A DNA stretch of 64,000 bases from contig NC_135818.1 in NCBI RefSeq assembly GCF_964213995.1, positions 64,356,001 to 64,420,000 on the forward strand, given 5' to 3'. A program made the position numbers and the translations under genes. The DNA comes from Mustelus asterias. Its lineage: Eukaryota. Under the pieces are notes generated by a model. It ran no database searches. It saw nothing but the letters and a program-made list of their open reading frames with translations, and had not been told where the DNA came from. Position 1 is the stretch's first letter. Every line of letters starts with the position of its first letter. This document shows, in pieces, positions 4,145-38,339 of this stretch.

Positions 4145-6026
4145 TCAGTAAGTAGTCTCACAACATCAGGTTAAAGTCCAAGTTTTATTTGGTAGCACGA
4201 GCTTTCGGAGCGCCGCTCCTTCATCAGGCGAGTGCAGGGTTTGTTTCACAAACAGGGCATATATAGACACAAACTCAGTTACAAGATAACGGTTGGAATG
4301 CGAGTCTTAACAGGTAATCAAGTCTTTACAAGTGCAGACAATGTGAGTGGAGAGAAGGTTAAGCACAGGTTAGAGAGATGTGTATTGTCTCCAGCCAGGA
4401 CAGTTAGTGAGATTTTGCAAGCCCAGGCAAGTCGTGAGGGTTACAGATAGTGTGACATGAACCCAAGATCCCGGTTGAGGCCGTCCTCATGTGTGCGGAA
4501 CTTGGCTATCAGTTTCTGCTCAGCGATTTTGCGTTGTCGTGTGTTGTGAAAGCCGCCTTGGAGAATGCTTACCCGAAGATCAGAGGCTGAATGCCCTTGA
4601 CTGCTGAAGTGTTCCCCAACAGGAAGGGAACACTCTTGCCTGGTAATTGTCGAACAGTGTCCACTCATCCGTTGTCGCAGCGTCTGCATGGTCTCACCAA
4701 TCTACCATGCCTTGGGACATCCATTCCTGCAGCGTATCAGGTAGACAACATTGGCCGAGTTGCAAGAGTATGTACCGTGTACCTGGTGGATCGTGTTCTT
4801 ACGTGAGATGATGGCATCCGTGTCGATGATCCGGCACGTCTTGCAGAGGTTGCTGTGGCAGGGTTGTGTGGTGTCGTGGTCACGGTCTCCTGAAGGCTGG
4901 GTAGTTTGCTGCGTACAATGGTCTGTTTGAGGTTGCGCGGTTGTTTGAAGGCAAGTAGTGGGGGTGTGGGGATGGCCTTGGTGAGATGTTCGTCTTCATC
5001 AATGACATGTTGAAGGCTCTGGAGAAGATGTCGTAACTTCTCCGCTCCGGGAAAGTACTGGACGACGAAGGGTACTCTGTCCGCCGTGTCCCGTGTTTGT
5101 CTTCTGAGGAAGTCGGTGCGGATTTTCACTGTGGTGTGTCGGAACTGTCAATCGATGAGTCGAGCGCCATATCCTGTTCTTACGAGGGCGTCTTTCAGCA
5201 TCTATTGCGATGCTTCTCATCTGAGCAGATCCTGTGTATACGGAGGGTTTGTCCGTAGGGGATGGCTTCTTTAACGTGTTTAGGGTGGAAGCTGGAGAAG
5301 TGGAGCATAGTGAGGTTATCCGTGAGCTTGCGGTACAGTGAAGTGCTGAGGTGACCGTCCTTGATGGAGATGCGTGCCCAAGAATGCAACCGATTTCAGA
5401 GAGTAGTCCATGGGGAGTTTGATGGTGGGATGGAACTTGTTGATGTCATCATGTAGTTGTTTCAGTGATTGTTCGCCATGAGTCCAAAAGGAAGAAAATG
5501 TCATCAATGTATCTAGTGTATAGCATCGGTTGAAGGTCCTGTGCAGTGAAGAAGTCTTGTTTGAACCTGTGCAAGAAGATGTTGACATATTGAGGTGCAA
5601 ATTTGGTCCCAATGGCCGTTCCATGTGAGTGGATGAACTGGTTGTTGAAGGTGAAGATATTGTGGTCCAGGATGAAACGAATGAGTTGCAGAATTGCGTC
5701 TGGAGATTGGCAGTTGTTGGCATTGAGTACTGAGGCAGTTGCAGCAATGCCGTCATTGTGAGGGATACTGGTGTAGAGTGCCGAAGAGTGTTCCTGGTTC
5801 AACTGCTCCATGGGTGCTGAGTTTCCGTAAGGAGTCCGTAGTGTCGCGACAGAAGCTAGGGGTTCTTTGTACGATGGGTTTCAGGATGCCCTCAACGTAG
5901 CCAGAGAGATTCTCACACAGGGTCCCATTGCCTGATACAATGGGACGGCCGGGTGGGTTGGCCTCGTGTATCTTCGGGAGGCAGTAGAGATCTCCAACAT
6001 GAGGATATCAACATCATCCACATCAT
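4145..6026 (-). mobile_element. Penelope-like retroelement, 5'-truncated and frameshifted (RT plus GIY-YIG endonuclease plus terminal repeat)
   Basis: RT motifs SALYTSIPH, GTAIGTKFAPQY, YTRYIDDIFF, LYRK..HFSSFHP..AIPYGQ. Endonuclease C-terminus TLRQRMSGH..PVGEHF..AEQKLI..GLN. A 12-bp direct repeat GAAGTGGAAGAT at 4133-4144 and 6027-6038 is a likely TSD. Confidence 0.92.
4196..4230 (-). ncRNA. Minimal type I hammerhead ribozyme motif in Penelope terminal repeat
   Basis: Minus strand reads CGC-CTGATGA-A-GGAGC-GGC-GCTCC-GAAA-GC-TC-GTG: conserved core, stem II, UH site and 3-bp stem I. Confidence 0.75.
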
Positions 6027-6486
6027 GAAGTGGAAGATGTTACAGATGAGCAGTACTTGGAACAGAAAATAGAAAGCTGCCGGATACAAAGGCTTATTGA
6101 TATTCCAAAGTTTCTCAGAGTCAAAAGCAAGATCTTATAAATTTGTTTAGACACATGGAAAAAAAAACACTATTTGACAACAAGTTTCATGAAGGAATCT
6201 AAGATTTGCAACCATAACTGCAAGTTCACCCATTGGATTTCTGATCTTTCTTCTTCAGTACTGCACTGTACATTTTGGTTTACATACTACCTTACATACT
6301 CCACAAATTGGCCATGTCTAAACAACGCTATCTTTCACTTTTAGCACAGTCAAGCTCCAATTTTATTTATTTTTTAAATGAGAACCATAATTTTTAATAT
6401 AAACCACAGCATTGGATGTTTAAATTTAAACTTTTCTCCTTCCCAAATTTTTTACTATACCTTTTGACAGAAGCAATAATGAATCC

Positions 6487-6745
6487 TAGCACTGCTGCCT
6501 CACAGCGCCAGAGACCTGGGTTTGATTCCCGGCTTGGGTCACTGTCTGTGTGGAGTCTGCACGTTCTCTGTGTCTGCGGCGGTTTCCTCCCACAGTCCAA
6601 AAGACATGCTGGTTAGGTGCATTGGCCGTTCTAAATTCTCCCTCAGTGTACCCGAACAGGCGCCGGAGTGTGGCGACAAGGGGATTTTCACAGTAACTTC
6701 ATTGCAGTGTTAATGTAAGCCTTTTGTGACTAATAAATAAACTAA
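6487..6745 (+). mobile_element. HE1/V-SINE-like SINE (subfamily with alternative 3' tail)
   Basis: TAGCACTGCTGCCTCACAGCGCCAG...CCCACAGTCC... ending GTGACTAATAAATAAA. The same tail is seen reversed at 48818-48985. Confidence 0.8.
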
Positions 6746-7189
6746 CTTAGAATAACCTTATTTCAATCGTAAGCTAAGGAAAAGAGCAAATTAAAATGAG
6801 GGTAAAAATCTTTAGCAAAACTTCCTCTAATTTTTTTGTACTGCACGGCGATACGTTTACATGCTTGGGCCCTTTCAATTCTTACATGCGGTCACACTTG
6901 AAGGGGCCAATTTATGTTTGGCCTGCACAGGAACATTGCGGGCCATGCAGCTTAGAGGAAACATTGATCTTAAACATAATTTAGAAGTTTAATTACAATT
7001 TTGATGTTAAAACTCACAAACATGCTGTACTTCAAATCAGCACTGAAACTGGTACCAAGGAATTAGAAAAAAGATGCCAGTGGATGGAAGAGACTGAAAT
7101 CTGAAAAGTTAGACATTTCACCATTCAGCTAAGATTACACTAAAGTCAGTTAACTTCACCCCATTCTCTAAAGAGAAAATAACACCTAC

Positions 7190-7348
7190 CTGTAGGTATA
7201 AAGACCGGATAGCAATCAGCTCAGAACCCAGGGGAACAACAAACTTCTCCACGTGTCTCTGGTGCGAGTAGGGCTGGATGTCCAGGGAATCTTCAGACCT
7301 CACCTCCAGATGCGAAATCATCAGGTTTGAAAGAACTTGTTGTACAGC
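7190..7348 (-). CDS. FANCM: FANCM coding exon 4 (159 nt)
   Basis: AVQQVLSNLMISHLEVRSEDSLDIQPYSHQRHVEKFVVPLGSELIAIRSLYLQ, with AG acceptor and GTAGGT donor, phase 0/0. Downstream exons were not found in the window. Confidence 0.93.
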
Positions 7349-9514
7349 CTGTCATATTAACACAACACTTATATAATATATGCTTCCATCAAACATCTTG
7401 AGCAAATTACCAATTCTTGTATCCTTCACCTCCCCAATGCTGTCCAAATCCTTTCAATCCTACTTTTGTCCTCCTATGGGGGCAACACATTTTCTCAAGT
7501 TACTTACAAGTGCTCCTAACTGCCTTACTGCCACAATATCTCTGCAGTTTTCAATGTGCTCAGCCACCCTAATGCTCCAGCTTTGACGTCCTTGTCCACC
7601 CACGAAACCTTCACCATCAGACGCCTCAATCCTCGAATAGGAACCATCTTAGCTCCCTCAAGTACAATCGCACAGGACTTGACAACTGATTTTGCCATCA
7701 ACTATCAGATTTGCTGCTTAAAATCAAGTTCCATTAGAACATTGGCTAACCTCCACCTTTTCCCCCCATTGTCAACTTCTGCTTATATCTCGAACAATAA
7801 AATAACTTTCTCACCAAGCTGATCCACCCATTCTCTGACCATGCCAGCCCTGAGCCACAATTCTCTACCTTGTTTATTGCCCATCTCCTCCATGCCTCCC
7901 CTGAACTCAACTCATTCACATGCCCCCCGACACTTTCACCCACTGCGACCTCATTCCCTACCTCCTCCTTTATGCCCACTGGCATTATGAATGGTTCCCT
8001 CTCCAGAGGCACTTCTTCCATTTCAAAGTGCACTGATCAATTCACCTTAAAAAAAAACTATTTGACCTCCCTATCCTTGCAAATTACTGCCCAACCTCCA
8101 AACTTCTTGAACATATTTATGAGATATGAAATGATGTTGCCGGTATTTAAAATTTTATTCATAAGGAATGATTGGATAGGCTAGGGGTTTTTTTGGAGCA
8201 GAGAAGGCTGAGGGGAGACTGAATTGAAGTGTACAACATTATGATGGGTTTAGATAGAGTGGATAGGAAGGCTTTGAAGCTAATATTAATACCTGCTCAT
8301 TACTAGATGCAAGCATGTCTCAGGCAATTATAAATAAAAAATACACAGTTTTGGCATTCAAAATCTTTGTGTACAAATAATAGAATAGCCCAATGGCACT
8401 ATTGGTTGATGTATTCATGCAGGAGAATCATAAAACTTGGACAAGGGTAAAATCATCTGAAATCCCAAACAAGGTGCTACTTTGCTACAACCCAGTTAAG
8501 ATTGTGTTGCATCGATTACGCACTGAAATTTTGCCTTACTCTTGCATTTTCCATATCCTCCAGTGACAGAGTCAATATGACTCGTTTGGTAACTCTTCAT
8601 AGACAGAAGATTGGCATTCAAGTCTCATTTCACATCAGAACACAGTCTAGGCTTATACTCCAAAACAGCATTGATGAGCAATCTGATTATTGGTGCTATC
8701 TTTCGGATAATAAGCTTATCTGAAGTCTGGTCAGCCTGCTAAATGGACATGGCACAATTTGAAGATCAGAAAGTTCTTCTGCTATCCTGAACTATTTCCA
8801 CCCAGGAGCCACTACCAAAACAGATCAGTTCGTCATTTATTTAAATTTATTTCTGGGACCTCGCTGTGTCTTCATTACAGTGACTACGCTCACATGGCTG
8901 TGAAACAACATGGACATCCATAGGATATGAAAGGTATCAGACATTTCTCAAATTGCAGTCTATATTAATGACCTAGATGATGGTGTTGTAAGCTCTGTCG
9001 GCAAGTTTGCAAATGACATTATGTTATTAGTGTTAGGTGAGGAGGATAAAGCTACAATCTCATCTATATCCGACAGACGTTTCACACCTGGCCAACGTCA
9101 CAACATAGGTAAATGCAAGGTCACGTCTGTGGGTGAGGTTAATGCTAAGCATGGCTGGTATGGAAAAGGGGGCAGTTACAATACAGGACAAGTTTGTGAA
9201 GGTGCACGATCAATGCCACAAAGCTACAGAGTATCAAGTTTGACAAGAACAATTCAGTATAAATGAAAATAGTTGTAGTGCTCCTATAGATGATTTTTAT
9301 TAGACTTTATTGGATATGCCCCAAAAAAGGTTCAAGGACCACCACTGAATGATCTCTAGACAAAATACCCGTAGTTATGATGATAGGGTTTATACAACTG
9401 GATCTTATTTTGGAGAAGTTGCAAGGAGATTTAATTCAAGTGTTTAATATTTAATTACTTATACGATGTAAATAGGTTAGGGAAAACAAGAGGACCCCAA
9501 AGCTCATCTACCAG

Positions 9515-10010
9515 TTACAAGGCACAAGTCAGAAACGTGGTAGAGTACTCTCCATTTGACTGCACAGTATAGCTCCAACAACAATCAAGAAGCTTGATGC
9601 AGCCAGAACAAAGAAATCCACTTTAATGGCACTTCATCCACCACCTTAAACATTCACTCCCTTGACCATCGACACACAGTAGTACCAACTACAAGTTGTA
9701 CATCAGCAACTCGACAAGTCTCCTTCAACACTCTCCAAACCTGTAACCTTTACTACCTAGAAGGACAAGGGCTGCAGATGCATTGGGAATACCATTACCC
9801 AGTCATTCCTCCCCATGGCACATGTAATCCTAATTTGCAACTATATCACCATTACTTCTGTTACTGGGTCAAATATCCGGACTTTGGGTGTATCTACACC
9901 AGATGGACTGCAGCAATTCAAGGCGGCGGCCCACCATCACCTGCAAGGGCAATAGGGGATGAGCAACAAGTGCTGGTTTTGCCTGCTATGCCCATATGCC
10001 AAGAATCAAA
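9515..10010 (+). mobile_element. Old L2/CR1-clade LINE 3' fragment
   Basis: Degenerate RT end (YKAQVR..EYSP) and a 3' tail AAGGGCAATAGGGGATGAGCAACAAGTGCTGG shared with the SINE at 35965-36345. Confidence 0.6.
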
Positions 10011-10404
10011 AACATACATATAGTATGGGAACATGCATATAATATGGGAATAATGACAGGGAAAGACTCATTGGTCCATCTGGTCAGTCGTATATATGAG
10101 TGATAGCTTGGCCCATAACTTCCGATCTCTAGAAAGTGACACCGTGACCCCACCACCCTCCTGCCAACCCAGAAGCCCCACACAAGGACTGCACGGCAAT
10201 TCCTGAGAAGTTCAAACTTCCATGCGCTGGGAACCATTCGATACTCCAATTTAAATCATGCACTTCGGATGATTCTGACCGTCTTACCAGAATAGTTACC
10301 CAGCAAAGGTTAGAAGAATTAAAGCCGCTTCTAACTCTAGTACTAACCCCACCACCACTCCCATTCCAACAGATCAGCCTGACTCCATCCCTTTGCTCCC
10401 TCCA

Positions 10405-11015
10405 TTTTGATTGGATTTGTCACATGTATTAACATACAGTGAAAAGTATTGTTTCTTGCGCACTATGTAGATAAAATATACCATTCATAGAGAAGGAAAC
10501 TAGAAAGTGCAAAATGTGGTGTTACAGTCATAGCTGGGTGTAGAAAAAGATCAACTTAATGCAGGGTAAGTCCATTCAAAAGTCTGACAGCAGCAGGGAA
10601 GAAGCTGTTCTTGAGTCGGTTGGTATGTGACCTCAGACTTTTGTATCTTTTTCCCGACGGAAGGTGGTAGAAGAGAGAATGGCCGGGGTGCATGGGGTCC
10701 TTAATTATGCCGGCTGCTTTGCCGAGGCAGCGGGAAGTGTAGATTGAGTCAATGGATGGGAGGCTGGTTTGCGTGTTGGATTGGGCTACATTCACGACCT
10801 TTTGGAGTTCCTTGCGGTCTTGGACAGAGCAGGAGCCATACCAAGTTGTGATACAACCAGAAAGAATGCTTTCTATGATGCACCTGTAAAGGTTGGTGAG
10901 AGTCGTAGCTGACATGCCAAACTTCCTTAATCTTCTGAGAAAGTAGAGGCATTGGTGGGTTTTCTTAACTATAGTATCGGCATGGGGTGGGGGACTTGGA
11001 CACCTAAAAACTTGA
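10405..11015 (-). mobile_element. Rex1/Babar-like LINE 3' fragment
   Basis: ORF 10556-10915 reads TLTNLYRCIIESILSGCITTWYG..LPSGKRYKSLRSHTNRLKNSFFPAAVRLLN. Confidence 0.8.
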
Positions 11016-11409
11016 AGCCAGTAGAACTTACTACCCCTTCACCCCGGCCATGCCCACCCTATTCTACCCCAATTACTGCACATACTTACCTCCTCCCTGG
11101 CTTTGCAAAGTGGCTGGGACATTAATCCCTATCCTTCTATTTTGCTACACCCCCTCTCTTCAACATCATGCCATCATCAACCCATCACATTTCTGCCTCT
11201 CGTCAGCTCTGAAGTCTCATACGGACTTGAAACATTAAATCAGTTTCTCTCTCCACAGATACTGCGAGACCTGAGTTTTTTCAGCATTTTCTGCTTTAAT
11301 TTATAAAATGGTTTCCAGCATTCCCGACATGAATTTTATGTAGTATAAAAGCAACTCAAATTTATTTTAACAGTGGCAATGATATCGGGCCTCTATGCGT
11401 AAATAGGAT

Positions 11410-11895
11410 ATCATAGAAAGCATCCTTCCAGGATGTATCACAGCTTGGTATAGCTTCTGCTCCGACCAAGACCGCGAGAAACTACAAAGGGTTGTGAACG
11501 TAGCCCAGTCCATCACGCCAACCAGCCTTCCATCCATCGACTCGGTCTACACTTCCCGCTGCCTCGGAAAAGCAGCCAGCATAATCAAGGACCCCATGCA
11601 CCAGGACATATTTGCTTCCACCTTTTTCCGTCGGGAAAAAGATACAGAAGTCTGAGATCGTGCACCAACCAACTCAAGAACAGCTCCTTCTTTACTGCCA
11701 TCAGACTTTTGAATGGACCTACCTTATATTAAGTTAATCTTTCTCTGCACTCTAGCTATGACTTTAACACTACATTATGCACCCTTTCCTTTCCTTCTCC
11801 CTATGTATTCTATGAACGGTATGCTTTGTCTATATAGCACGCAGGAAACAATACCTTTTCACTGTATACCAATACATGTGACAATAAATTAAATA
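11410..11895 (+). mobile_element. Rex1/Babar-like LINE 3' fragment (opposite orientation to the 10405 copy)
   Basis: Reverse-complement similarity to 10405-10880. Ends ACATGTGACAATAAAT. Confidence 0.8.
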
Positions 11896-12698
11896 ATAAA
11901 CCTAGCGCCTTGTGACTGCATGCTTGCATGCAGACAAGTAGCAAGATACATAAATACAGCCATATTCGTCATTGCTATCTATATCAATTTGTCATAACCA
12001 TTATATTTAGTTCCAGTGAAGGTATGCTGTGTATTGTTTTGTTTCTAATCTTTGGGTACATGTAGCCCAAATTCTGTTTTAAAAAAAACTGGGTCAACAC
12101 CTCATTTAGGACAATAATTGACAAATCAGCTACAGTAAAACCAGACATCTGTAGAATAAATTAGGAATTAACTATAGTGTTTAGCAATGGCAATAAAAAG
12201 ATAGCATCAAGCATGTAGCTGAATAAGGCAATACATCAAGATTAAATAACAATATTCCAGAATTTCAACTCAATTGCATGACAGGCACAGAGATAAAAAA
12301 ATGACTCAAGTTAAAAGTTAATGCATGGTACTTATAATGCAGCACTTTTGATTCCATCCAAAACCCTCAGTCAACTGAAGATTGTCATCAAATGTTGCTT
12401 ATAAAGAGATTTTGTACTTCTCTTGTATTCCAATAACAAATAGCATTTTAATGACTTCATTTAGTACAAAACAGAAAATCATATCCAAGCAGTTCTTTAT
12501 AGTACAAAAAACGACAAGGCTCCAAGACAAACATATGGACACCCTCCATCCTATAATGTTGTAATTTCAAGTTTTTTCTTCCATGTTTATCTTTCTTCAA
12601 CGTTTGTACATTGCAATTACCCGGTCTTCAGAAAATTAAAGATGAACTGTGAAATCATACAATCTATCCAATACGTGAAACCTGTACGAGTAACTCAC

Positions 12699-12776
12699 CT
12701 TCATGTCACTACCCGGCGTTGCAGTCAAAGCCAGAACACGGAACTGAAGTGTATAATTACATAGCTCCCGAACAAC
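12699..12776 (-). CDS. FANCM: FANCM coding exon 3 (78 nt)
   Basis: VVRELCNYTLQFRVLALTATPGSDMK, containing helicase motif III (TAT), with AG and GTGAGT boundaries. Confidence 0.95.
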
Positions 12777-13017
12777 CTTCAAGAGAAAGACGAAATGATA
12801 AAAGAAAAATCACAAGACGTTATGATAGGGTTTATAGAACTGGATCTTATTATTTTGAGAAGTTTCAAGAAGATTTGATTCAAGTGTTTAATATTTAATT
12901 AGCCTATCGCTGTAGTTAGGTTAGGGAAAACAAGAGGACCCCAAACCCATGCTCACCAGGTACAAGGCACAAATTACAATACGAGGGTGTATATGCACAA
13001 CCTTTGCAATACTGTAC

Positions 13018-13190
13018 CTGGCAGTAAGCGTGATTCCCTAATGCCTTGTGAGCTTCATCCACAACCAAACACTTCACATCAGCAGCTGGGCAAGCTTGAC
13101 GAGAAAGGTCATTCATCATAACCTGCGGTGTGAGGAAGACAACTCGTTTGGCATTCCAAATATTCTGGCGATTCACTGCCTGTGTCTGTC
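13018..13190 (-). CDS. FANCM: FANCM coding exon 2 (173 nt)
   Basis: (G)QTQAVNRQNIWNAKRVVFLTPQVMMNDL..KCLVVDEAHKALGNHAYCQ, containing the DEAH box, phase 1/0. Confidence 0.96.
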
Positions 13191-14524
13191 CTGCAAAAGT
13201 TATTGAATGCTTAGCTAAATATCAATTTTAATCCATGCACTTTTACAAAAAATGAACGGAGGGAGAGGACTTATAATTAAAAATGGCATTTGCAGGACGT
13301 TACATTGGCACTGTGTATTCAGGAACTAACAATCAAAGGCAAAAAGCAAGGTCCAAATGTAGATTTGATTCTCATTCTGCTCAATTCTCACAAACAGTTG
13401 CAGTAACTGAGGAGACGGGATGCGAAGCAAAGATTGTAAAATCTCCTTGTGGAAGAGAAAAAAAATCAGAAAGAAGGATTTTGAATGGCAGGGTCTAATT
13501 TTTCTCAATAGCCAGCTACAGACCACTGATGATAACCTACCCAGTTCCCTGCTCTTGACAGTAAAGATGAAATGGCCAGTTAAAGATTGGGATATTTATC
13601 AGAATAAACTTACATCTTAGTGACACTAACTTTGCATTTGCTTGCCCCTTCAAATCAGGGTACAGTCAAAAGAATTTATAAAAAGGGGAGTTCATGTGAT
13701 TTATTTCTCAGCCTTCAGAAGGTATAACTTGCAAGAATGTTTATAAATAATCAAATTACAGCAGCCAAATAAGCTCTCAAGTAAAGGTTTATGATTTTGG
13801 AATCCTATTAAACATAGTCATTGTAGCAGCTTCCAATTGAAGAATTCTAAAAAATGTGTCAAATCAAATAAAACCCAGAAATAGTAACATATGTTGAGTC
13901 CACTATAAGTATATGCAGTCCGCCTATTCTTGGCCATGTATTTTGAACTTTGTCTGTTACTACTATTGTTGAAGGATGACTACATAAAATGTAATCCTAA
14001 TAACCAGGTTGATGCAGATACATTCACTACCATTATAGAGCAAACAATGTTGGGAGTTAATACTGTCCTATTATGTCTGGTACAATCTTCATTAGCTGCA
14101 AGTGCTCTAACAGTAATCAAATAGCTAAGAATGGAACCCAAAAAGGGATAGTCCCATTGAACTGGACAAGAGGAGAGGCATTAGTAGAGGATAGTATGTT
14201 TAACCACCTCAACAACTACAATTAAGAAATGGAAGGAGAATGCCCCATGCTTCCAGGCACAGATGAAGTCATTTATGACTGACTTTGGTGAAGGTTTTAT
14301 TAGTACTATTGTAGGGCCAGAAGCCTGTTGGGGTGATTCAAACAGGAAACTGTGGGAAAGATGGTCATGTATTTGGACACTCAAGGACAGAAAATGCTGG
14401 AAAACCTCAGGAGGTCTAAAAGCATCTGTAGAGAGAACACAGAGTTAACGTTAAGTTTGGATGATTTTTTGTCATCCAAACTTGAAATATTAGCTCTGTT
14501 CTCTTAAAAAAATATGGTAACTGC

Positions 14525-14990
14525 TTAATTACAGGAAGGATGTGGAGACTTTGGAGAGGATGCAGGATGCTGCTTGGACTAGATGGTATGAAGTATAAGG
14601 AGAGGTTGTTTTCTCTGGAGCAGCGGAGGCTGAGGGGAGACCTGAGAGGAGTCTATAAAATTATGAGAGTTTACAGTCAGAATCTCTTTCCCAGAGTTGA
14701 AATGTCTAATACTAGGGGTCATGCATTTAAGGTGAGGGGGGAAAAGTTCAAAGGAGATGTGAGGGACAGATTATTTTTAAAAATAGAGTGGTAGGTGTCT
14801 GGAACGCACTGCTGGGGTGGTGGTGCAGGCAGATATGATAGGGGCGTTTAAATAAGTACATGAATATGCAAGGGAGAGAGAGATATGGACCAAGGGCAGG
14901 CAGAAGGGATTAGTTTAATTTGGCGTCATGTTTGGCACAACATTACAGGCCAAAGGGCCTGTTCCTATGCTGTACTGTTTTATGTATTGG
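14525..14990 (+). mobile_element. CR1-like LINE 3' fragment
   Basis: ERLFSLEQRRLRGDL..VYKIM..TRGHAFKVRG, the CR1 ORF2 C-terminus. Confidence 0.8.
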
Positions 14991-15119
14991 ACAACACCAC
15001 CTAACCCATGGAAACTGGGGTGCAAATGCAACACTTCTATCCAGTCTTGGTGCAGATTTGCTTACCCAGGCCTTTCCTGCTCTTGTGGGTTGGTGCAGTT
15101 TAAACATTATCTGACAATG

Positions 15120-15415
15120 GGGCGGCACAGTGGTTAGCCCTGCTGCCTCACAGCGCCAGGAATCCGGGTTCGATTCACGGTTTGGGTAACCGTCTGTGAG
15201 GAGTTTGCACATTCTCCCCATGTCAGCGTGGATTTCCTCCGGGTGCTCCAGTTTCCTCCCACAGTCCAAAGATGTGCGGGTTAGGTGGATTGGCCGTGTT
15301 AAATTAACCCTTAGTGTCAGAGGGATTAGCTAGGGTAAATGCATGGGGTTATGGGGATAGGGCCTGGGTGGGATTGTGGTCAGTGCAGTCTCGATGGCAC
15401 TGTAGGGATTCTATG
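15120..15415 (+). mobile_element. HE1/V-SINE-like SINE in FANCM intron 1
   Basis: GGCGGCACAGTGGTTAGC...CACTGTAGGGATTCTATG, a near full-length unit. Confidence 0.87.
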
Positions 15416-15427
15416 ACAATCCGTTAC

Positions 15428-15962
15428 CTGTCATCTCTGTCATGTGCTCCTGCGGGATGCCCATCACCTTGTAACAAGCTTCGATCTGCTGAGCTACCAG
15501 GGGTTTAGTGGGGGCCATGAACACGATCTTGCCCGAGGGGTACCAGCGGTAGAAGTTGTACATGAGCACGGCGGCGATGAAGGTCTTGCCCAGGCCGGTG
15601 GGCAGACACACCAGCGTGTTGTGGAAGAGGGCCGCCTGGGCCATGTCGAACTGGTAGCTTCGCAGCGGGTAGTTGACGGGGTAAATCCACACATCGCCCG
15701 AGGACAGGTCGAAGCCCGGGAGGGTGGCGGGCGGCGGGCCGGGGGAGGCCGGCCTGGGGCTGGCCAGGCTCCGCTCAGCCTCAAACACCGCCACCAGCAG
15801 CACGTCGTCATCCTCCCCGTCCGGGAAGCCATCCGAGGCCGAGGCCGGGGCTGAGCGGCCGGCGGGCCCGGGCCCGGCCTCGGCGCTCCTCCCGCCCGGG
15901 CGCTGCGATCCGGCCTTGCTGCCCCAGCTCTGGAACAAGGTCCTCTGGCGCCCGCCGCTCAT
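15428..15962 (-). CDS. FANCM: FANCM (Fanconi anemia group M helicase/translocase) coding exon 1
   Basis: MSGGRQRTLFQSWG..DDDVLLVA..GFDLSSGDVWIYPVNYPLRSYQ..NTLVCLPTGLGKTFIAAVLMYNFYRWYPSGKIVFMAPTKPLVAQQ, the FANCM N-terminus with Walker A. Donor GTAACG at 15427, phase 1. An in-frame upstream ATG exists at 15977. Confidence 0.97.
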
Positions 15963-16200
15963 TCGAGAAACTTCCATAAACCCCTCAGTGCCGTGGGTCG
16001 GGCGGCATGGTTTATACTGGTTTAACGCTGGTTTATACTAGTCGAACGCTGGTTTCAATGGTTTATTCCGGGTTTGTCGATAGTTTAATTTTGAAGCCGC
16101 CGCTTGTCATTCGAATCTGGCGCATTTTTGTGACGTGGCGACATCAAAGCCCCGCCCCCTCCCCCGTTGCTAGGAGACGAACCGCAGCCTCCTGACTGCC
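15963..16200 (-). promoter_or_regulatory. FANCM CpG-island promoter / 5' UTR
   Basis: CpG-rich. CHR-like TTTGAA 16090-16095, E2F-like TGGCGC 16118-16123, CRE/E-box-like TGACGTGG 16131-16138, GC box GCCCCGCCCC 16149-16158. These are motif matches only. Confidence 0.65.
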
Positions 16201-16203
16201 CCT

Positions 16204-18483
16204 CACTGGACACAACTCCCACTGGACACCTGGACACAGCGACACTCCCACTGGACACCTGGACACAGCGACACTCCCACTGGACACCTGGACACAGCGA
16301 CACTCCCACTGGACACCTGGACACAGCGACACTCCCACTGGACACCTGGACACAGCGACCCTCCCACTGGACACCTGGACATAGCGTCACTCTCACTGGA
16401 CACCTGGACACAGCGACACTCCCACTGGACACCTGGACACAGCGACACTCCCACTGGACACCTGGACACAGCGACCCTCCCACTGGACACCTGGACATAG
16501 CGTCACTCTCACTGGACACCTGGACACAGCGACACTCCCACTGGACACCTGGACACAGCGACACTCCCACGGGACACCTGGACACAGCGACATTTCCACT
16601 GGACACCTGGACACAGCGACATTTCCACTGGACACCTGGACACAGCGACACTCCCACTGGACACCTGGACATAGCGTCACTCTCACTGGACACCTGGACA
16701 CAGCGACACTCCCACTGGACACCTGGACACAGCGACACTCCCACTGGACGCCTGGACACAGCGACACTTCCACTGGACGCCTGGATACAGCGACACTCCC
16801 ATTGGACACCTGGACACAGCGACGCTCCCACTGGACACCTGGACACAGCGACGCTCCCACTGGACATCTGGACACAGCGACCCTCCCACTGGACAACTGG
16901 ACACAGTGACACTTCCACTGGACGCCTGGATACAGCGACACTCCCATTGGACACCTGGACACAGTGACGCTCCCACTGGACACCTGGACACAGCGACGCT
17001 CCCACTGGACATCTGGACACAGCGACCCTCCCACTGGACAACTGGACACAGTGACACTTCCACTGGACACCTGGACACAGCGACACTCCCACTGGACATC
17101 TGGACACAGCGACACTTCCACTGGACACCTGGACACAGTGACACTCCCACTGGACACCTGGACACAGCGACACTCCCACTGGACACCTGGACACAGTGAC
17201 ACTCCCACTGGACGCCTGGATACAGCGACACTCCCATTGGCCACCTGGACACAGCGACACTCCCACTGGACACCTGGACACAGCGACACTCCCACTGGAC
17301 ACCTGGAAATAGCGACACTCCCACTGGACACCTGGACACAGCGTCATTTCCACTGGACATCTGGACACAGCGACACTCCCACTGGACACCTGGACACAGT
17401 GACGCTCCCACTGGACACCTGGACACAGCGATGCTCCCACTGGACATCTGGACACAGCGACACTCCCACTGGACAACTGAACACAGTGACACTTCCACTG
17501 GACACCTGGACACAGCAACACTCCCACTGGACATCTGGACACAGCGACACTTCCACTGGACACAGCGACACTCCCACTGGACATCTGGACACAGCGATAC
17601 TCCCACTGGACACCTGGACGCAGTGACACTCCCACTGGACACCTGGACACAGCGACACTCCCACTGGACACCTGGACACAGCGAAACCCCTACTAGACGC
17701 AGTAACACTCCCATTGGACACCTGGACACAACAACACTCCCACTGGACATCTGGACACAGTGACACTCCCATTGGTCACAGTGACACTCCCACTGGACAC
17801 CTGGACACAGTGACACTCCCACTGGACACAACGTCCACTGGAAATCTGGACACAGTGACACTCCCACTGGACACAGTGACACTCCCACTGGACACAGTGA
17901 CACTCCCCCTGGACACAACTTCCACTGGAAATCTGGACACAGCGACACTCCCACTGGACACAACTCCCACTGGACATCTGGACACAGTGACACTCCCACT
18001 AGAAATCTGGACACAACTCAGAGTGGACATCTGGACATGATGGCTCTCCCACTGGATACCTGGATGCAGTGACATTCCCACTGGACACAACTCCCACTGG
18101 ACACCTGGACACAGTGACACTCCCACTGGGCACAACTCCCACTGAACATCTGGACAGAGTGACACTCCCACTGGACACATGGACACAGTGACCTGCCACT
18201 GGACACATAAACACAGTGACACTCCCACTGGACACATGCACACAGTGACACTCCCACTGGGCACAATTCCCACTGAACATCTGGACAGAGTGACACTCCC
18301 ACTGGACACATGGACATGCTGACACTCTCACTGAACACAGTGACACTCCCACTGGACACCTGGACACGCTGACACTCCCACTGATACAATGACACTCCCA
18401 CTGGACACATAAACACAGTGACACTCCCACTGGACACATAGACACAGTGACACTTCTGCTGGACATGGTGACATTCCTACTGG
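16204..18483. repeat. 29-bp minisatellite array (CACTGGACACCTGGACACAGCGACACTCC)n, about 2.3 kb
   Basis: Directly visible tandem units, homogeneous near 16220-16900 and increasingly degenerate with shortened units towards 18480. Confidence 0.97.
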
Positions 18484-18693
18484 GTGCAGTGACCTGAATT
18501 TTGGCCCAGTCAGAAGAGCTCTGCACCTCACTGAGAATGAATGAGGCATGGAGAGCTTCTGACTGCGACGGAATTCTCCTATCTGGCTCTAGGTCCCATG
18601 ATGTGGAGATGCCGGCGTTGGACTGGGGTAAACACAGTAAGAAGTTTAACAACACCAGGTTAAAGTCCAACAGGTTTATTTGGTAGCAAAAGC

Positions 18694-18734
18694 CACACAA
18701 GCTTTCGAGGCTCTAAGCCCCTTCTTCAGGTGAG
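18694..18734 (-). ncRNA. Minimal hammerhead ribozyme motif (minus arm of palindrome)
   Basis: CAC-CTGAAGA-A-GGGGC-TTAGA-GCCTC-GAAA-GC-TT-GTG. Confidence 0.7.
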
Positions 18735-18777
18735 TGGGAATTCTGTTTGTTCTGTCTGTTTGTGAACAGAATTCCCA

Positions 18778-18818
18778 CTCACCTGAAGAAGGGGCTTAGA
18801 GCCTCGAAAGCTTGTGTG
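18778..18818 (+). ncRNA. Minimal hammerhead ribozyme motif (plus arm of palindrome)
   Basis: CTCAC-CTGAAGA-A-GGGGC-TTAGA-GCCTC-GAAA-GC-TT-GTGTG, read directly at 18778-18818. Confidence 0.7.
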
Positions 18819-19249
18819 GCTTTTGCTACCAAATAAACCTGTTGGACTTTAACCTGGTGTTGTTAAACTTCTAGGTCCCATGGCAGTGTCAGGGACAGGG
18901 AATGTTTCCTGCTGCAGAGGCTGATGGGGAATCTCATGGTATCTTCTGTCCCTCATGTCATTAATTATGCAAATATGTGCCCTGCCATCATATCGGTTCA
19001 ACATATTTAAAAAGCATCCGAACATCCTTAATGTCAGTGCAAACTACAAAGGTGTCTGGAAGGAGAGGTGAAGGTCCAACACCGAAGTTTAGGGACACCC
19101 TCCTGTATGGCCTCCGGAACCATGTTGGGGTCGGAGGAATATATTTCCTCCGGCTGATGGGAGGAGGTTGAGAGGGGAAACCAACCCTGTGTGGGTGCAG
19201 GTGGCAGATGCCCACGCTGTTCAGGAGAGGTCAGCAATACAATGTCACA

Positions 19250-19530
19250 GAACCACAGAATTCCTACAGTACAGAAGGAGGCCATTCAGCCCATCGGGTC
19301 ATGCACTGACTCCCCGAAAGAACATCTTACCCAGGCCCACCCCATTGCCCTATCGTAACCCCGCACATTTACCATGGCTAATACACATAATCTACACATT
19401 TTTGGACACTAAGGGACAATTTAGCATGGCCAATTCACCTAACCTGCACATCTTGGACTGTGGGTGGAAACTCACACAGAATGAGGAGAATGTGCAAACT
19501 CTACACAGTCACCCAAGGTCCATGGCACTG
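19250..19530 (-). mobile_element. HE1/V-SINE-like SINE, degenerate
   Basis: Reverse complement of the SINE body (GGGACAATTTAGCATGGCCAATTCACCTAACC...TGTGCAAACT). Confidence 0.75.
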
Positions 19531-20137
19531 TGGGGATCCACAAGAGGATGAACAACCTCATTCGCTCCGCCAGGGTAAGTAACCCCAAAGCTAGTTGTTT
19601 AAACCACAGGACCAATATGTCAGGGTACATGAGCCTCGGTGGTAATGGCATAATTCTGCCTCGCAACTACCTAAATCTCCTCAGTGCCCTGTCTAACATC
19701 TTAACATTGTCCTAAAGTGTAATGCCCAGAACTGGACACAGTGCTCAAGTTGGAGCCTCATGATTGTTATTATAAAGGTTTAGCATAATCTTCTTGATTT
19801 TGTACTTTATGCCTGTGTTTTACAAAGATCCTTATACCATTATGATAGCCTTCTCAAATCCTGTTGTAAATGTTAATAAGTTGTTAAGGCAAAATAATTG
19901 CCAATTAACAGTAAGTATAGAAAATTTTAATAACAAATGTTCTTTATCAAAAGTACAGCAAAGTGATTCCATTAAAGTAAACCCAGTTAAACATTACTGA
20001 GCAGCAGACAAAATAGCAAACTGTGCTTGTGCATCAAGCAAATAACAATGCTGTTGACTTTGTGTGTGTGACCTCCTGGACAGGTCACCAAGGTCTGTTA
20101 AACAATGTTTCAACCTGTTTCTGTCTTCAAAAAGAAA

Positions 20138-20674
20138 TGATGTGGAGATGCTGGTGTTGGACTGGGGTGAACACAGTAAGAGTTTTAACAACACCAGGTT
20201 AAAGTCCAACAGGTTTATTTGGTAGCAAATGCCATTAGCTTTCGGAGCGCTGCTCCTTCGTCAGATGGAGTGGATATCTGGTCTCAAACAGGGCATACAG
20301 AGACACAAAATCAAGTTACAGAATACTGATTAGAATGCGAATCTCTACAACCAACCAGGTCTTAAAGATACAGACAATGTGAGTGGAGGGAGCATTAAGC
20401 ACAGGTTAAAGAGATGTGTATTGTCTCCAGACAGGACAGCCAGTGAGATTCTGCAAGTCCAGCAGGCAAGCTGTGGGGGTTACTGATAGTGTGACATAAA
20501 TCCAAGATCCCGGTTTAAGCCCGGAACTTGGCTATCAGTTTCTGCTCAGCGACTCTGCACTGTCGTGTGTCGTGAAGGCCACCTTGGAGAACGCTTACCC
20601 GAAGATCAGAGGCTGAAAAGAGGCAGAAGATCAGCCTCTGATCTTCGGGTAAGCGTTCTCCAAGGCGGCCTTCA
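20138..20674 (-). mobile_element. Penelope-like 3' fragment with short inverted 5' segment
   Basis: Colinear with 4150-4590. Inverted repeat at about 20573-20617 vs 20630-20674. Confidence 0.88.
20232..20268 (-). ncRNA. Minimal hammerhead ribozyme motif
   Basis: Minus strand reads CCAT-CTGACGA-A-GGAGC-AGC-GCTCC-GAAA-GC-TA-ATGG, with a perfect 4-bp stem I. Confidence 0.75.
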
Positions 20675-20902
20675 TTGCGGTGTTATTGTAAGTCAACTTG
20701 TGACTAATAAACTTTAAAACTTTAAACACACAGGTAAATAAATAAAATAGCAGCCAAGGCTGCCTTGAGGCAGTGCCCCAATTCTTGCAAACTTACATCA
20801 TGGCTGTTCTATGATTCTGCGTGAGAGAGGACTCCACCCTTGGGCATGATTGGTCCTTCAAGCCAGGTAACCCTCTTCTGCTGCGCTGTCTTAAAGAGAT
20901 AG

Positions 20903-21122
20903 TAAGAAGTTTAACAACACCAGGTTAAAGTCCAACAGGTTTATTTGGTAGCAAAAGCCACACAAGCTTTCGAGGCTCTGAGCCCCTTCTTCAGGTGAGG
21001 AAGGGGCTCAGAGCCTCGAAAGCTTGTGTGGCTTTTGCTACCAAATAAACCTGTTGGACTTTAACCTGGTGTTGTTAAACTTCTTACTGTGTTTACCCCA
21101 GTCCAACGCCGGCATCTCCACA
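20903..21122. mobile_element. Second palindromic Penelope terminal-repeat mini-insertion (hammerhead motif at 20959-20999, minus)
   Basis: Inverted arms of about 90 bp. TSD TCTTAAAGAGATAG at 20889-20902 and 21123-21136. Nearly identical to the 18601 element but in the opposite orientation. Confidence 0.9.
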
Positions 21123-21588
21123 TCTTAAAGAGATAGGCCCCACAATCACAGAGAATCTGCATTCTCAGCACGTTTAAAATGAATGGGAACCAGTGCTGCC
21201 ACCTCTTGTGGGTGGATTTATTGTATCAATGATTTCAGCCTGGCGTTGCAATGACGCATGCCACCAATCTGTAGCCTTTTACTTCGGGGCATCGCTTTGG
21301 ATTCGGGTCGGGAATCGAAAAGTGCCAAGCCTCCCGCAGACTCTGTGGCTGCAGCGAACTCAAAAGGAATAGGATAACAATTTTTGAGAAGTGCCTCTTA
21401 AATATGGTGCCCAGTTACGACAGCAGAGTGAGTTCTTTCATTCTTGCTGGCAGTGGCGACGGGGCGTGAACGGCCAGAAAATTCCAGCCAATGTTTTTAT
21501 GGAGTAATAGCCTTAATGGAGGTACAGACTCAGTGAGATCGGGTATTAAAGCTGAAAATTAGATCGCAAGTATTTTCCTATGAAGTAA

Positions 21589-23999: not shown

Positions 24000-26140
24000 A
24001 TAGAACATAGAACAGTACAGCACAGAACAGGCCCTTCGGCCCACGATGTTGTGCCGAGCTTTATCTGAAACCAAGATCAAGCTATCCCACTCCCTATCAT
24101 CCTGGTGTGCTCCATGTGCCTATCCAATAACCGCTTAAATGTTCCTAAAGTGTCTGACTCCACTATCACTGCAGGCAGTCCATTCCACACCCCAACCATT
24201 CTCTGTGTAAAGAACCTACCTCTGATATCCTTCCTATATCTCCCACCATGAACCCTATCGTTATGCCCCCTTGTAATAGCTCCATCCAGCCGAGGAAATG
24301 GTCTTTGAACGTTCACTCTATCTATCCCCTTCATCATTTTATAAACCTCTATTAAGTCTCCCCTCAGCCTCCTCCACTCCAGAGAGAACAGCCCTAGCTC
24401 CCTCAACCTTTCCTCATAAGACCTACCCTCCAAACCAGGCAGCATCTTGGTAAATCTCCTCTGCACTCTTTCCAGCGCTTCCACATCCTTCTTATAGTGA
24501 GGTGACCAGAACTGCACACAATATTCCAAATGTGGTCTCACCAAGGTCCTGTACAGTTGCAGCATAACCCCAGGGCTCTTAAACTCCAACCCCCTGTTAA
24601 TAAAAGCTAACACACTATAGGCCTTCTTCACAGCTCTATCCACTTGAGTGGCAACCTTTAGAGATCTGTGGATATGGACCCCAAGATCTCTCTGTTCCTC
24701 CACAGTTTTCAGAACCCTACCTTTGACCCTGTAATCCACATTTAAATTAGTCCTACCAAAATGAATCACCTCACATTTATCAGGGTTAAACTCCATTTGC
24801 AATTTTTCAGCCCAGCTTTGCATCCTATCTATGTCTCTTTGCAGCCTACAACAGCCCTCCACCTCATCCACTACTCCATCAATCTTGGTGTCATCAGCAA
24901 ATTTACTGATCCACCCTTCAGCCCCCTCCTCTAAGTCATTAATAAAAATCACAAAGAGCAGAGGACCAAGCACTGATCCCTGTGGCACTCCGCTAGCAAC
25001 CTGCCTCCAGTCCAAACATTTTCCATCACCTTCTGTCTTCGATCAGATAGCCAGTTACCTATCCAATCGGCCAACTTTCCCTCTATCCCACACCTCCTTA
25101 CTTTCATCATAAGCCGACCATGGGGGGCCTTATCAAACGCCTTACTAAAATCCATGTATATGACATCAACTGCCCTACCTTCATCAACACACTTAGTTAC
25201 CTCCTCAAAAAATTCAATCAAATTTGTGAGGCACGACTTGCCCTTCACGAATCCGTGCTGACTATCCCGGATTAATCCGCATCTTTCTAAATGGTCGTAA
25301 ATCCCATCCCTAAGGACCTTTTCCATCAATTTACCAACCACCGAAGTAAGACTAACCGGCCTATAATTACCAGGGTCATTTCTATTCCCTTTCTTAAACA
25401 GAGGAACAACATTCGCCACTCTCCAGTCCTCTGGCACCATCCCCGTGGACAGTGAGGACTCAAAGATCAAAGCCAAAGGCTCTGCAATCTCATCCCTTGC
25501 CTCCCAAAGAATCCTAGGATATATTTCATCAGGCCCAGGGGACTTATCGACCTTCAGTTTATTCAAAACTGCCAGTACATCCTCCCTCCGAACATCTATT
25601 TCCTCCAGCCTATTAGCCTGTAACACCTTCTCTTCCTCAAAAACATGGCCCCTCTCCTTGGTGAACACTGAAGAAAAGTATTCATTCATCACCTCGCCTA
25701 TCTCTACTGACTCCATACACAAGTTCCCACTACTGTCCTTGACCGGCCCTAACCTCACTCTGGTCATTCTTTTATTCCTCACATAAGAGTAAAAAGCCTT
25801 GGGGTTTTCCTTGATCCGACCCACCAAGGACTTCTCATGTCCCCTCCTAGCTCTCCTAAGCCCCTTTTTCAGCTCATTCCTTGCTAACTTGTAACCCTCA
25901 ATCGAGCCATCTGAACCTTGTTTCCTCATCCCTACATAAGCTTCCCTCTTCCTTTTCACAAGACATTCCACCTCTTTCGTGAACCATGGTTCCCTCACTC
26001 GGCCATTTCCTCCCTGCCTGACAGGGACATACCTATCAAGGACACCCAGTATTTGTTCCTTGAAAAAGTTCCACTTTTCATTAGTATCTTTCCCTGACAG
26101 TTTCTGTTCCCATCTTATGCCCCCTAATTCTTGCCTGATC
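24000..26140 (-). mobile_element. CR1-like LINE, 5'-truncated, relatively young
   Basis: RT ORFs 24949-25998 and 24077-25015 ([40 protein letters not shown]). TTCTATG tail at 24000. CATTACAT flanks both ends (possible TSD). Confidence 0.95.
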
Positions 26141-27223
26141 GCATTACATCAATGATTTTTCCATTACTCATGAGATAAAAGGTAGCAAGATCAAATGGTT
26201 TCGCAAGAGAATGCCAAAAGGCAGTAGTTGAAAGTCTGGCCGCTGATAGTGGAGTGAAGGGAGTAAGAACAAGAGGCAATCTACAGTCAGGGGAAGGGAG
26301 AACAGTGACCCAAGGGGTCCGTGCCGTTCAGAAAGAGTACACTATTGGAATAAATACAGTGACAGAATAACAGCATAACCAGAAGAGCACTGTGTCACAG
26401 AACTCTAGAGCGAGAGGCAGAGGAAGAAAATAGAATGATCAGCAGCACCAAAGTTAGCAGAAAGAACACAGAGATAGAGAAACACAATCATAGATTGGTG
26501 ACTCTGACCAGGGCGATCTCAGCACTGCTATAAACAGGCCAGATAGGGTAGAGATGCTTGACCATGATGGAAAGGGTGATTATGACGTGGCAATGATCTT
26601 GGAGAGAAAGGGCAATTTAGACATGGGGTGATCATTGAAGAAAATGTCGCGAGAATGGACTTTTCAATAAGTAAGTGGTGAAAGGAATTTTGAAAGGGAT
26701 GGGAACAAGAGGATAGGGGAAGGTTGATAGTGCTGACACGTGTTTTAAGGATGTACAATTACATGAAAATAAATATTTCTCAGAGTAATTAAACTTTTGT
26801 AAAATGAATTACTACAAAAACATTTTTTAGCTTTAATGAAATTATTATTCTCTCCCGCCTTCCTAGACTAAAATACTCACGCCTTGGCTGAGATTAATTT
26901 AGCAGAGACCAGTATCAAAATGTCATTCTGAAATGGCGCTGCATCCTTCCAGAGCTCTCCTGACAGTGTTCTTTTCAATCACCTAATGTTTGCTAACAAC
27001 TGAGTTCTATTGCAGACAAATATTCAATATATCAACATTCTCAAATAATGCCTTCGGGTAAATGGAGAGAGATCCTGTGCCACAAATAGATGGTCATGTT
27101 CAACTAATACATCTTAGAAAAGCCTGGGCAAGCTGCTTGTACTTTCCAACCACTGAAATGCATCACTGTCTACAGGCTGATACCCAATTAAAGTTTTTAC
27201 CCCCAAAAATTTCAAGCACATAA

Positions 27224-28300: not shown

Positions 28301-28464
28301 TATTAGCTCTTTGACCAAGCTTCTCGCCATCTGATTGAATCTCTCCTTCTGTGGCTCAGTGTCATACTTTGTTTATAATGCTCCTGTAAAGGGCTTACTG
28401 ATATTCCTTTATGTTAAGGTACTGTATACTTATGAGCTGTTGCTGTACTCTATTGGCAGGGACC

Positions 28465-29098: not shown

Positions 29099-29429
29099 GT
29101 AAATCCATTTTTGCCATTGAATGTTTTGTACGTTATACATCCATTATTATAAAGAGTGTTATAATTCAAGTCGGAAACTCCAAAGTGTTTTATGAAGCCC
29201 ACCTGGATCATTACTTTTGCAATTTGAAATTGGCTAGGGGAAGCATGAGCTGCTTCACTTCAGGTATGATTCAAATGAGCCACTAGGTAGTTTTTTTACC
29301 AAACAAAGTTTATTTAAGAATACAGTTAATATGTATAGAAAGAAAATTAGCAATAAATTTTACCAATTACAAACAAGAAAAAAAAACCTTGACATTGTGT
29401 CAACCTTAACAGCTTAGTCAGCTAAGAAA

Positions 29430-33856: not shown

Positions 33857-34984
33857 GGGACTATCTTACTGGCTCGTCACACCGGTCGATTGGCATGGTG
33901 AGCTGATAGGGTCAGGCAAGAGGCGATAAATCAGGTTTGTGCCCGGTTTCTTGCCTCTTGCGATATTGCCGACCCAGTTCTATCGGCGTAATCTGGGCGC
34001 GAGGCTGATTTAAATATTTATAACATTATTTAAGTATCATTAGTGAGTCCAGGACACAATTGTCTGGGCTCACTTGCCTTAACGACCTTGCCAGTAGAGG
34101 TCCCCAACAATGGGGATTAGATGTGATGGCCTCGCCGGGGGGAGCAGAGGCCATTGAGACCCTTGTGGTGGCCAGGGGCAAGGGCAGCATGGGACTGCCA
34201 GCCTGACACCCTAGTAGTGACAGTCTGATACCCTGTCACTGCTCTTTGGGAACCCTAGCACTGCCAACCTGGCACCCTGGCAGTGCCCACTAGGCATTGG
34301 GCAGTGCCAATGGGTGGGGCCTACAGGGAGGGGAGGGACGGGGCCTGAAGATGGTGGGCCCATGACAGGGAGGCGGGGTGTGGGGAGCTTCATAGGGGAG
34401 GAAACTCTGCATCGGGGATTGTTGGGGCGGTGACCAACTGGGGACGGAATGGGGGCGGTGATTGGCCAGGGAGGAATGGGGGGTGGCCAGCAGAGCAGGG
34501 GCCGCAATCGGGGGGGCAAGGGGGGTTAGTCCGATGTCCATGTGGGGGTGAGAGGAGGTCTCCCGGTTCACCGGCAGATCAGGGCACCCTGTGGAATGGT
34601 GCCGGAGTGCTCTGAAGCTGGTTTCACCAGTTTATGTAAGCTCCGTCCCATCCCCGTAAGGTTCCCTGCTGTCAAAAAACGTGTTTTTAGTGTTTTTAGT
34701 GTTGTTAAACTTCTTACTGTGTTTACCCCAGTCCAACGCCGGCATCTCCACGTCAAAAAACGTGACAGAGCACTGGAAGATTGCAGGGCCAAGCTCGCCG
34801 AAAAGACCGGCGCAGAGGACTCCCGTTTTATCAATGTTATGACACTTCAGCCCAAATATTACGGCCGTTCCCGCCGGTGGAATTTTCCCAACCCAGCGAA
34901 GTGAACAGAGATTTGGTTGGGCGCCAAATTCTCCCACCTCTCTGCCACGGGAGTGTGGCGTGAACAGCCAGTAAGATCGGGCCC
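33857..34984. mobile_element. GC-rich MITE-like element with terminal inverted repeats
   Basis: Left end ATCTTACTGGCTCGTCACACC vs right end GGCGTGAACAGCCAGTAAGAT (imperfect inverted repeat). No credible coding capacity. Confidence 0.65.
34684..34751 (+). mobile_element. Ultra-short (68 bp) Penelope terminus insertion
   Basis: GTGTTGTTAAACTTCTTACTGTGTTTACCCCAGTCCAACGCCGGCATCTCCAC is identical to the end of the 20903 element. TSD GTCAAAAAACGTG at 34671-34683 and 34752-34764. Confidence 0.85.
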
Positions 34985-38230: not shown

Positions 38231-38339
38231 GGAGTTGGAGGGGTATTTGGCCACAAATCTTTTTTGGCTAAAAACAAATTATTGCAGATGCTGGAATCTG
38301 AAATCTTGGCTGGCTCGCTGCTGCCGCCGACTGGAAGTG

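Follow-up and report, generated by a model that had tools for sequence, protein, structure and literature searches.

Minimal hammerhead ribozymes (min-HHRs) were described by Cervera and De la Pena (2014; PMC4209133) as many solo and opposite-strand copies in metazoan Penelope-like elements (PLEs), located in the pseudo-long terminal repeats (pLTRs). Their consensus, CUGANGAH G..C GAAA N N' UH, has an extra nucleotide separating position 9 from position 10.1, a G10.1-C11.1 pair, palindromic positions 15.2/16.2 and a short helix I, and the families covary; that paper gives no evidence of min-HHR cleavage in vivo. In the Poseidon element of Anolis carolinensis (PAc), protein-assisted cleavage and an internal start of reverse transcription have been shown, with both target strands primed (Frangieh et al. 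2024; PMC11167929). Here we analyse hammerhead motifs in 64,000 nucleotides of the genome of the shark Mustelus asterias (NCBI RefSeq assembly GCF_964213995.1, contig NC_135818.1, positions 64,356,001 to 64,420,000 of the forward strand; the window, below), and the abundant Neptune-type PLE to which they belong.

The window holds five complete motifs, which derive from four insertions and three subfamilies of this one PLE. Counted genome-wide, the 5' ends of its insertions are in excess at the position where the ribozyme is predicted to cut, and this excess suggests a trace of cleavage in vivo. Judging from genomic sequence, we consider it likely that the min-HHRs in the pLTRs are active in vivo on a minority of the RNAs of the element, which they cut after the dinucleotide UH, and that reverse transcription (RT) runs off at the cut, leaving short stub insertions.

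A core pattern search of the window gave exactly five matches, compared to none in 100 dinucleotide shuffles. Direct reading of the sequence placed all five at the coordinates and on the strands given in an earlier note, which had been made from the sequence alone. They are listed here with a sixth, partial copy.

4196..4230, minus strand: minimal hammerhead of subfamily D type (N7 = U, UH = UC), cleavage predicted at 4199/4198
18694..18734, minus strand: minimal hammerhead of subfamily B (N7 = A, UH = UU), cleavage predicted at 18699/18698
18778..18818, plus strand: mirror copy of the 18694 hammerhead, subfamily B, cleavage predicted at 18813/18814
20232..20268, minus strand: minimal hammerhead of subfamily A (N7 = C, UH = UA, stem I CCAU/AUGG), cleavage predicted at 20236/20235
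20959..20999, minus strand: minimal hammerhead of subfamily B, cleavage predicted at 20964/20963
21000..21028, plus strand: 5'-cut partial hammerhead with stem II, GAAA-GC-UU and the 3' strand of stem I, without CUGA

As the earlier note had read, the variable core position is U, A or C, the cleavage dinucleotide is UC, UU or UA, and the extra A and GAAA-GC-UH are present. The extra A and the two-nucleotide loop, which it considered notable, both belong to the 2014 consensus (PMC4209133); in the GGGGC variant stem II is 6 bp long and the loop has 3 nt. The motif class is already known, the extra A, the palindromic AGCU and the covariation being its published definition, and the shark motifs share these consensus features. 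The Chrysemys (turtle) row of that paper continues from GAAA-GC-UU into CCAAAUAAA, as do the shark motifs, and no shark appears among the rows of its supplementary alignment that were examined. Our search, outside which lay subscription journals and Repbase/Dfam, found no literature on hammerheads of shark PLEs or on copies ending at the cut; one paper that it retrieved uses the word shark just to describe the ribozyme's shape.

The bare motifs of 35-41 nt fold into stems I and II. The stability of these folds was mostly not above that of shuffles (z = 0.24, -0.47, -1.88 and -0.08), and their folding energy is therefore no evidence. Extension of stem I past 3-4 bp with a CCACU bulge was present in the fold of the motif at 18778, and absent from those at 4196 and 20232; the fourth pair of stem I is formed in only 37 % of copies. 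The Rfam models matched no hammerhead family in the window at E <= 5. The core pattern had 125,312 complete matches genome-wide (reversed-pattern control 0; mirror arms count twice). The published counts, obtained with a different method, are about 9,000 for Xenopus and about 4,000 for coelacanth (PMC4209133). The Rfam matches to microRNAs, all below gathering scores, merely reflect fold-back arms and were discarded.

A full natural unit of the element, found at loci L226 and L066, is 3019 bp long and has the order pLTR-ORF-pLTR (ORF, open reading frame), which bears out the earlier assignment of minimal type I hammerheads to Penelope termini. The single ORF encodes a reverse transcriptase matching RVT_1, and a C-terminal endonuclease motif of the GIY-YIG type could be read in the translation; the Pfam GIY-YIG model itself gives a score only for P0038, a turtle relative with 43 % identity, and for none of the shark proteins. 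The nearest proteins are from sharks (82-89 % identity), followed by turtles (~43 %). A C-x4-C-xx-C linker precedes the endonuclease motif. Linkers of the form CX2-5CxxC are a trait of Neptune and Nematis and are absent in Penelope/Poseidon (PMC8557442); by this linker in its translated sequence, which Nematis shares, the element classes as Neptune-type, and a Poseidon assignment (Penelope/Poseidon clade) is ruled out. In this the element differs from PAc, which it resembles in having a minimal hammerhead at the pLTR-ORF junction (PMC11167929).

The 3' ends of the insertions fall into two clusters, approximately +60-65 and +100-105 from the predicted cut (~45-50 and 82-90 nt past the anchor), and PAc likewise has two internal RT starts, ~30-40 nt apart, which define its tail (PMC11167929). 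The ATG follows directly after the tail, ~103 nt past the predicted cut in the 3019-bp unit, where it coincides with the distal RT start; the ORF of PAc, by contrast, begins inside the ribozyme (PMC11167929). Of 194 tail ends, 70 run on into the ATG. An exact 35-nt word of the tail has 154,065 copies in the genome (reversed-pattern control 0; mirror arms again count twice). Among 50 copies of subfamily B the 58 nt past the cut contain no shared variant, and the subfamilies have almost the same sequence there; this holds for 18599-18677 of the window as for all copies. A stem-loop can form in the tail, closed by GUUGGAC/GUCCAAC, which is likely a signal for binding of the reverse transcriptase.

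In a position-unbiased sample of loci several truncated copies were found to begin at the predicted cut, and this was followed by genome-wide counting, with the predicted cut as position 0, upstream positions negative and downstream positions positive. The short-spacer (D) subfamilies, which the end-caller mis-scored, were left out of the automated counts. In subfamily B, a young branch of the family, a start at the cut was counted for 415 copies when six non-matching upstream bases are required, 583 start within -6..-2 when three are required, and 41,205 extend past -9; a downstream control of all subfamilies gave 2,405 ends over 7 positions. After correction for composition, ~2,340 subfamily B ends (5.4 %) lie at the cut, compared to 0.65 and 0.51 % per neighbouring position. 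The excess is thus 8.8-fold and 10.5-fold with correction, 7.0-fold when the AAGCTT-joined class is included and 3.6-fold without correction. About 95 % of copies pass the site.

The partner arms of the insertions point in the same direction. An inverted partner within 400 nt was present at 22 of 30 cut-site loci, 18 of 30 UA-subfamily loci and 19 of 30 control loci. The partner extended beyond the cut in only 2 of the 22 cut-site copies and 2 of the 18 UA-subfamily copies, compared to 12 of the 19 controls (Fisher p = 0.0006 and p = 0.002, respectively). Double-arm junctions, for which the search pattern demands that both arms reach the cut, numbered 452; in a hand tally of 50 listed ones, 19 were joined at AAGCTT, 29 had one arm whose end coincided exactly with the cut, and 2 were of neither kind. 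Signs of run-off were also seen in single copies, three of which (L177, L191 and L187) jump from the cut into the ORF at +173, +173 and +184, respectively, while the 214-bp tandem of L225 starts at the cut. The repeated landing at +173 in L177 and L191 possibly marks a recurring RNA 3' end or a landing site. Seven of 60 cut-site rows were flush with the target duplication (L184, L194, L245, L247-L249, which form one tandem locus, and L256), compared to 4 of 30 control rows. Re-insertion into old pLTRs was considered as a source of the footprint and rejected, as none of the 30 cut-site loci showed the upstream half that a split copy would leave.

It is conceivable, though in our judgement unlikely, that the hammerhead fold is genuine but rarely or never cuts in vivo, and that the 5' pile-up marks a stall of RT or a hot spot of end joining, such as the border of an AAGCUU/AGCU duplex formed by two RNAs. 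The 6-nt palindrome of subfamily B ends exactly at -1, and this subfamily has the strongest peak; that of the UA subfamilies ends at -2, and a hand tally of 100 of their ends had A directly in front of the cut in 59, so that their peak may lie partly at -1. Junctions joined by the palindrome are common, as the 19 of 50 above illustrate. On the other hand, the remaining 41 of the 100 UA-subfamily ends are without the A17 that a stop at the duplex edge would keep, and A is also frequent before the cut in subfamily B, where H17 is U. RT reads through the 5-6 bp of stem II in most copies, the partner arms are bounded at the cut, and cut-site junctions vary widely in type (blunt, target-flush, jumps into the ORF) instead of sharing one microhomology.

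The hard 5' end could also be the start of transcription from a promoter in the pLTR that coincides with the cut site, which appears the least probable of the explanations considered here. A capped start would bound both arms in the same way, and two of the copies that jump into the ORF (L177 and L191) have an extra G before the cut. The UU|G at the cut suits a pyrimidine-purine transcription start. However, G stands at -1 in only 8 of 68 AUG-type ends (hand tally), below the genomic G content of 22 %, and there is thus no signature of a cap. Moreover, the 5' end tracks UH across subfamilies that differ in sequence and in their distance from the anchor (15 and 13 nt).

Several observations weigh against cleavage as the source of the footprint. 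The composition correction is rough, as it assumes random junction bases, yet the element itself supplies most junctions. The excess at the cut is weaker (~3.5-fold) and blurred in the A-type and related subfamilies: of 100 listed ends tallied by hand, 29 were at 0/-1, 15 at -2, 12 at +1, 12 at +3, 9 at -8, 2 at +2 and 21 over -3..-7; the preponderance of A before the cut in the UA subfamilies belongs here as well. In the position-unbiased sample the script called only 6 of 160 ends at -1..+1. Among 104 subfamily B copies that pass -9, the mean end rate over -10..-59 was 0.8 % per position, and at -36, where there is no ribozyme cut, 4 of 89 copies at risk ended (4.5 %, 95 % CI 1.2-11 %). Position -36 may thus be as hot as the cut and form a competing hot spot of the same size, which also speaks for the stall explanation.

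Published experiments add to these points. Genomic 5' ends of the shark element pile up at the cut, whereas the RNA-seq reported for PAc had no reads beginning or ending there, which also speaks for a stall; ribozyme mutants of PAc transposed normally in vitro, and its cleavage took place only with protein (PMC11167929). A single min-HHR did not cleave in vitro, and dimers cleaved poorly (PMC4209133). Of nine Xenopus retrozyme dimers, eight were without cleavage and one cleaved (bioRxiv 10.64898/2026.07.22.740005).

A separate observation concerns the region just 5' of stem I, where 16 of the 104 sampled subfamily B copies end within the 11 positions from -35 to -45, 4 of them at -36 (in the window, the region of 20999 and 18778). 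The origin of this cluster may lie in a microhomology hot spot, in a promoter start or in a splice acceptor, with a CAG that ends at -45.

Cleavage of a minority of the RNAs, the explanation we favour, would proceed as follows. Stem III consists of one A-U pair closing GC, and for this reason cleavage probably needs either a second copy, paired as AGCU/AGCU, or the protein of the element; aid by the protein would be as in the anole element. When two copies with flanks were cofolded, in energy models that do not score the catalytic core, intermolecular pairings other than a clean AGCU duplex formed. The cut would fall just after UH, ~103 nt upstream of the start codon. RT would begin internally at the two tail sites and copy towards the 5' end of the RNA. 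On cut RNA it would run off at the cut and leave stubs of 60-105 nt, whereas on uncut or re-ligated RNA it would read through, giving the ~95 % of copies that pass the site. If RT runs off on a cut minority, cleavage may set the 5' end of the ORF-coding RNA produced from read-through or tandem transcripts, while most transposition would use uncut RNA. We also lean, with somewhat more reserve, towards regarding the thousands of copies that start after UH, bounded in both complementary DNA (cDNA) arms, as a fossil record of cleavage in the germline; cleavage would then set the 5' end of the ORF RNA and leave a template for stubs only, and long transposition would take place via uncut or circular RNA.

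A stronger role for circles was considered. In the model of PMC4209133, efficient cleavage would be followed by ligation into unit-length circles, which would be the main template, and intact motifs would be re-ligated junctions; for the shark element we consider this quite improbable. An internal RT start just 3' of the cut would copy the whole unit of a circle, and the tandem at L225 contains three intact junctions, beyond which it ends at the cut. However, uncut linear tandem RNA, the dominant substrate in vitro (PMC11167929), explains the same copies, and genomic copies cannot tell a circle from a linear tandem.

Two tandem loci outside the window deserve mention. L225 (C1, minus strand, overlapping L211) consists of 3.5 copies of a 214-bp unit which extends from -56 in the pLTR through +153 in the ORF and includes the hammerhead and the tail; the array begins at the predicted cut and ends at the tail. 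It is a retrozyme-like tandem born from this PLE, and resembles the non-LTR retrozymes, which are tandem hammerhead units derived from pLTRs (bioRxiv 10.64898/2026.07.22.740005). Unlike these, the motifs of the window are solo or inverted ends of PLE insertions. The second locus, L247-L249 (C4:98883971-98884225), has three 111-bp units directly after a subfamily B tail, each composed of the target-duplication word and a cut-to-tail stub of subfamily A.

The earlier note had also claimed covariation in the stems and selection on the structure. In 188 intact-core copies from sampled loci, a set enriched for subfamily B, pairs 1-3 of stem I are formed in 96-98 % and pairs 1-5 of stem II in 93-100 %. 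The first pair of stem I is C-G in 132 and U-A in 45 of the 188 copies, a two-sided change, and the third pair of stem II is A-U in 73, G-U in 76 and G-C in 38, a second two-sided change, from A-U to G-C via G-U. Opposite G10.1, which the search pattern fixes, C stands in 175 and U in 13 of 188 copies. The extra A, at a position free in the pattern, is present in 189 of 189 parsed copies, and the palindromic 15.2/16.2 is GC in 183 of these 189, helix III being minimal. One proposed case, CGC/GUG, was rejected as a subfamily trait, the pair being A-U in 180 of 188 copies and G-U in 4, so that it is a rare change in single copies.

A pairing test was performed on 21 hand-picked representatives, counting a single pair of stem I together with five of stem II and leaving out the other stem I columns, which the aligner had misplaced. 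In this set 97.6 % of cells were paired and three of the six pairs had two-sided changes, above all slid controls; the paired cells and the covariation score were above all 500 shuffles. The pair-level covariation measures in the same 21 representatives did not go beyond shuffles (67/500 and 58/500). The claimed covariation is thus real but thin, with two or three two-sided events in a related set. Within subfamily B, the five shared variants in 37 motif positions comprise three in loop II, two pair-keeping changes in stem II and none in the core. This pattern fits selection on the structure of the source elements, so that the earlier claim of selection is supported to a modest degree, by few events.

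The insertions which carry the motifs of the window are the following.

4146..6000 (5' boundary approximate), minus strand: decayed, 5'-truncated Neptune-type PLE, with remains of RT and GIY-YIG followed by the 3' pLTR
18599..18872, both arms: head-to-head stub of subfamily B, 274 bp, minus arm with a tail of ~40 nt and plus arm without
20137..20674, minus strand: 5'-truncated copy of subfamily A, with the endonuclease C-terminus, pLTR and full tail
20901..21124, both arms: second head-to-head stub of subfamily B, in which the plus arm carries the tail and the minus arm does not
34699..34755, plus strand: tail-only fragment of the same PLE family, without hammerhead

The element at 4146..6000 has frameshifts and stops in its RT/GIY-YIG endonuclease frame, and the ORF stop is at approximately 4441-4443; the hammerhead at 4196-4230 sits 3' of this decayed ORF, and the element terminates ~50 nt beyond the cut, with no tail. 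Motifs 18694 and 18778 lie in opposite, mirrored arms of a single insertion, the RNA of which folds as one long hairpin (-221.8 kcal/mol); its target duplication of at most 13 bp (18588-18600 and 18870-18882) overlaps the element ends. The stub at 20901..21124 has the same layout, with motif 20959 in one arm and the opposite arm, from 21000, without CUGA; its target duplication of at most 14 bp (20889-20902 and 21123-21136) overlaps the element ends as well. The copy at 20137..20674 includes a short inverted piece at 20573-20674, and no target duplication was seen for it. In RNA, the motifs of the fold-back stubs would, according to folding models, be buried within the long hairpin, and the copies in the window are dead insertions. 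Their layout is like that of endonuclease-containing (EN+) PLEs, where an inverted 5'-truncated copy, a one-sided tail of 30-40 bp and a target duplication have been described (PMC3846280, PMC8557442), the inverted arms among them (PMC3846280). The target duplications at the shark loci examined are mostly 10-15 bp, compared to 8-10 bp in Adineta (PMC3846280, PMC8557442), and no targeting of microsatellites was apparent at these loci.

Among the other features of the window, a minisatellite at 16071-18480, with a 29-bp unit in more than 60 copies, adjoins the stub at 18599..18872. An open frame at 28402-29286 (plus strand) has a strong match to Serpin (E = 2e-53) and is probably a host exon, while decayed RVT_1 frames at 24077-26148, 44920-46380 and 62391-63002 are probably remains of long interspersed nuclear elements (LINEs). 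A repeat resembling a short interspersed nuclear element (SINE) has many copies throughout the window, and two related arrays of short units (25-36 bp) lie ~2.7 kb apart at 38325-38697 and 41297-41615.

Of interest in the shark are the scale, with more than 100,000 cores in one genome, and the putative footprint of cleavage, which is suggestive. With this number of cores and with measurable pile-ups of 5' ends, the question of cleavage becomes testable from sequence, and the exact RNA ends to be expected can be named. If the footprint does record cleavage, it would allow ribozyme activity to be assayed from sequence alone in every subfamily and species.

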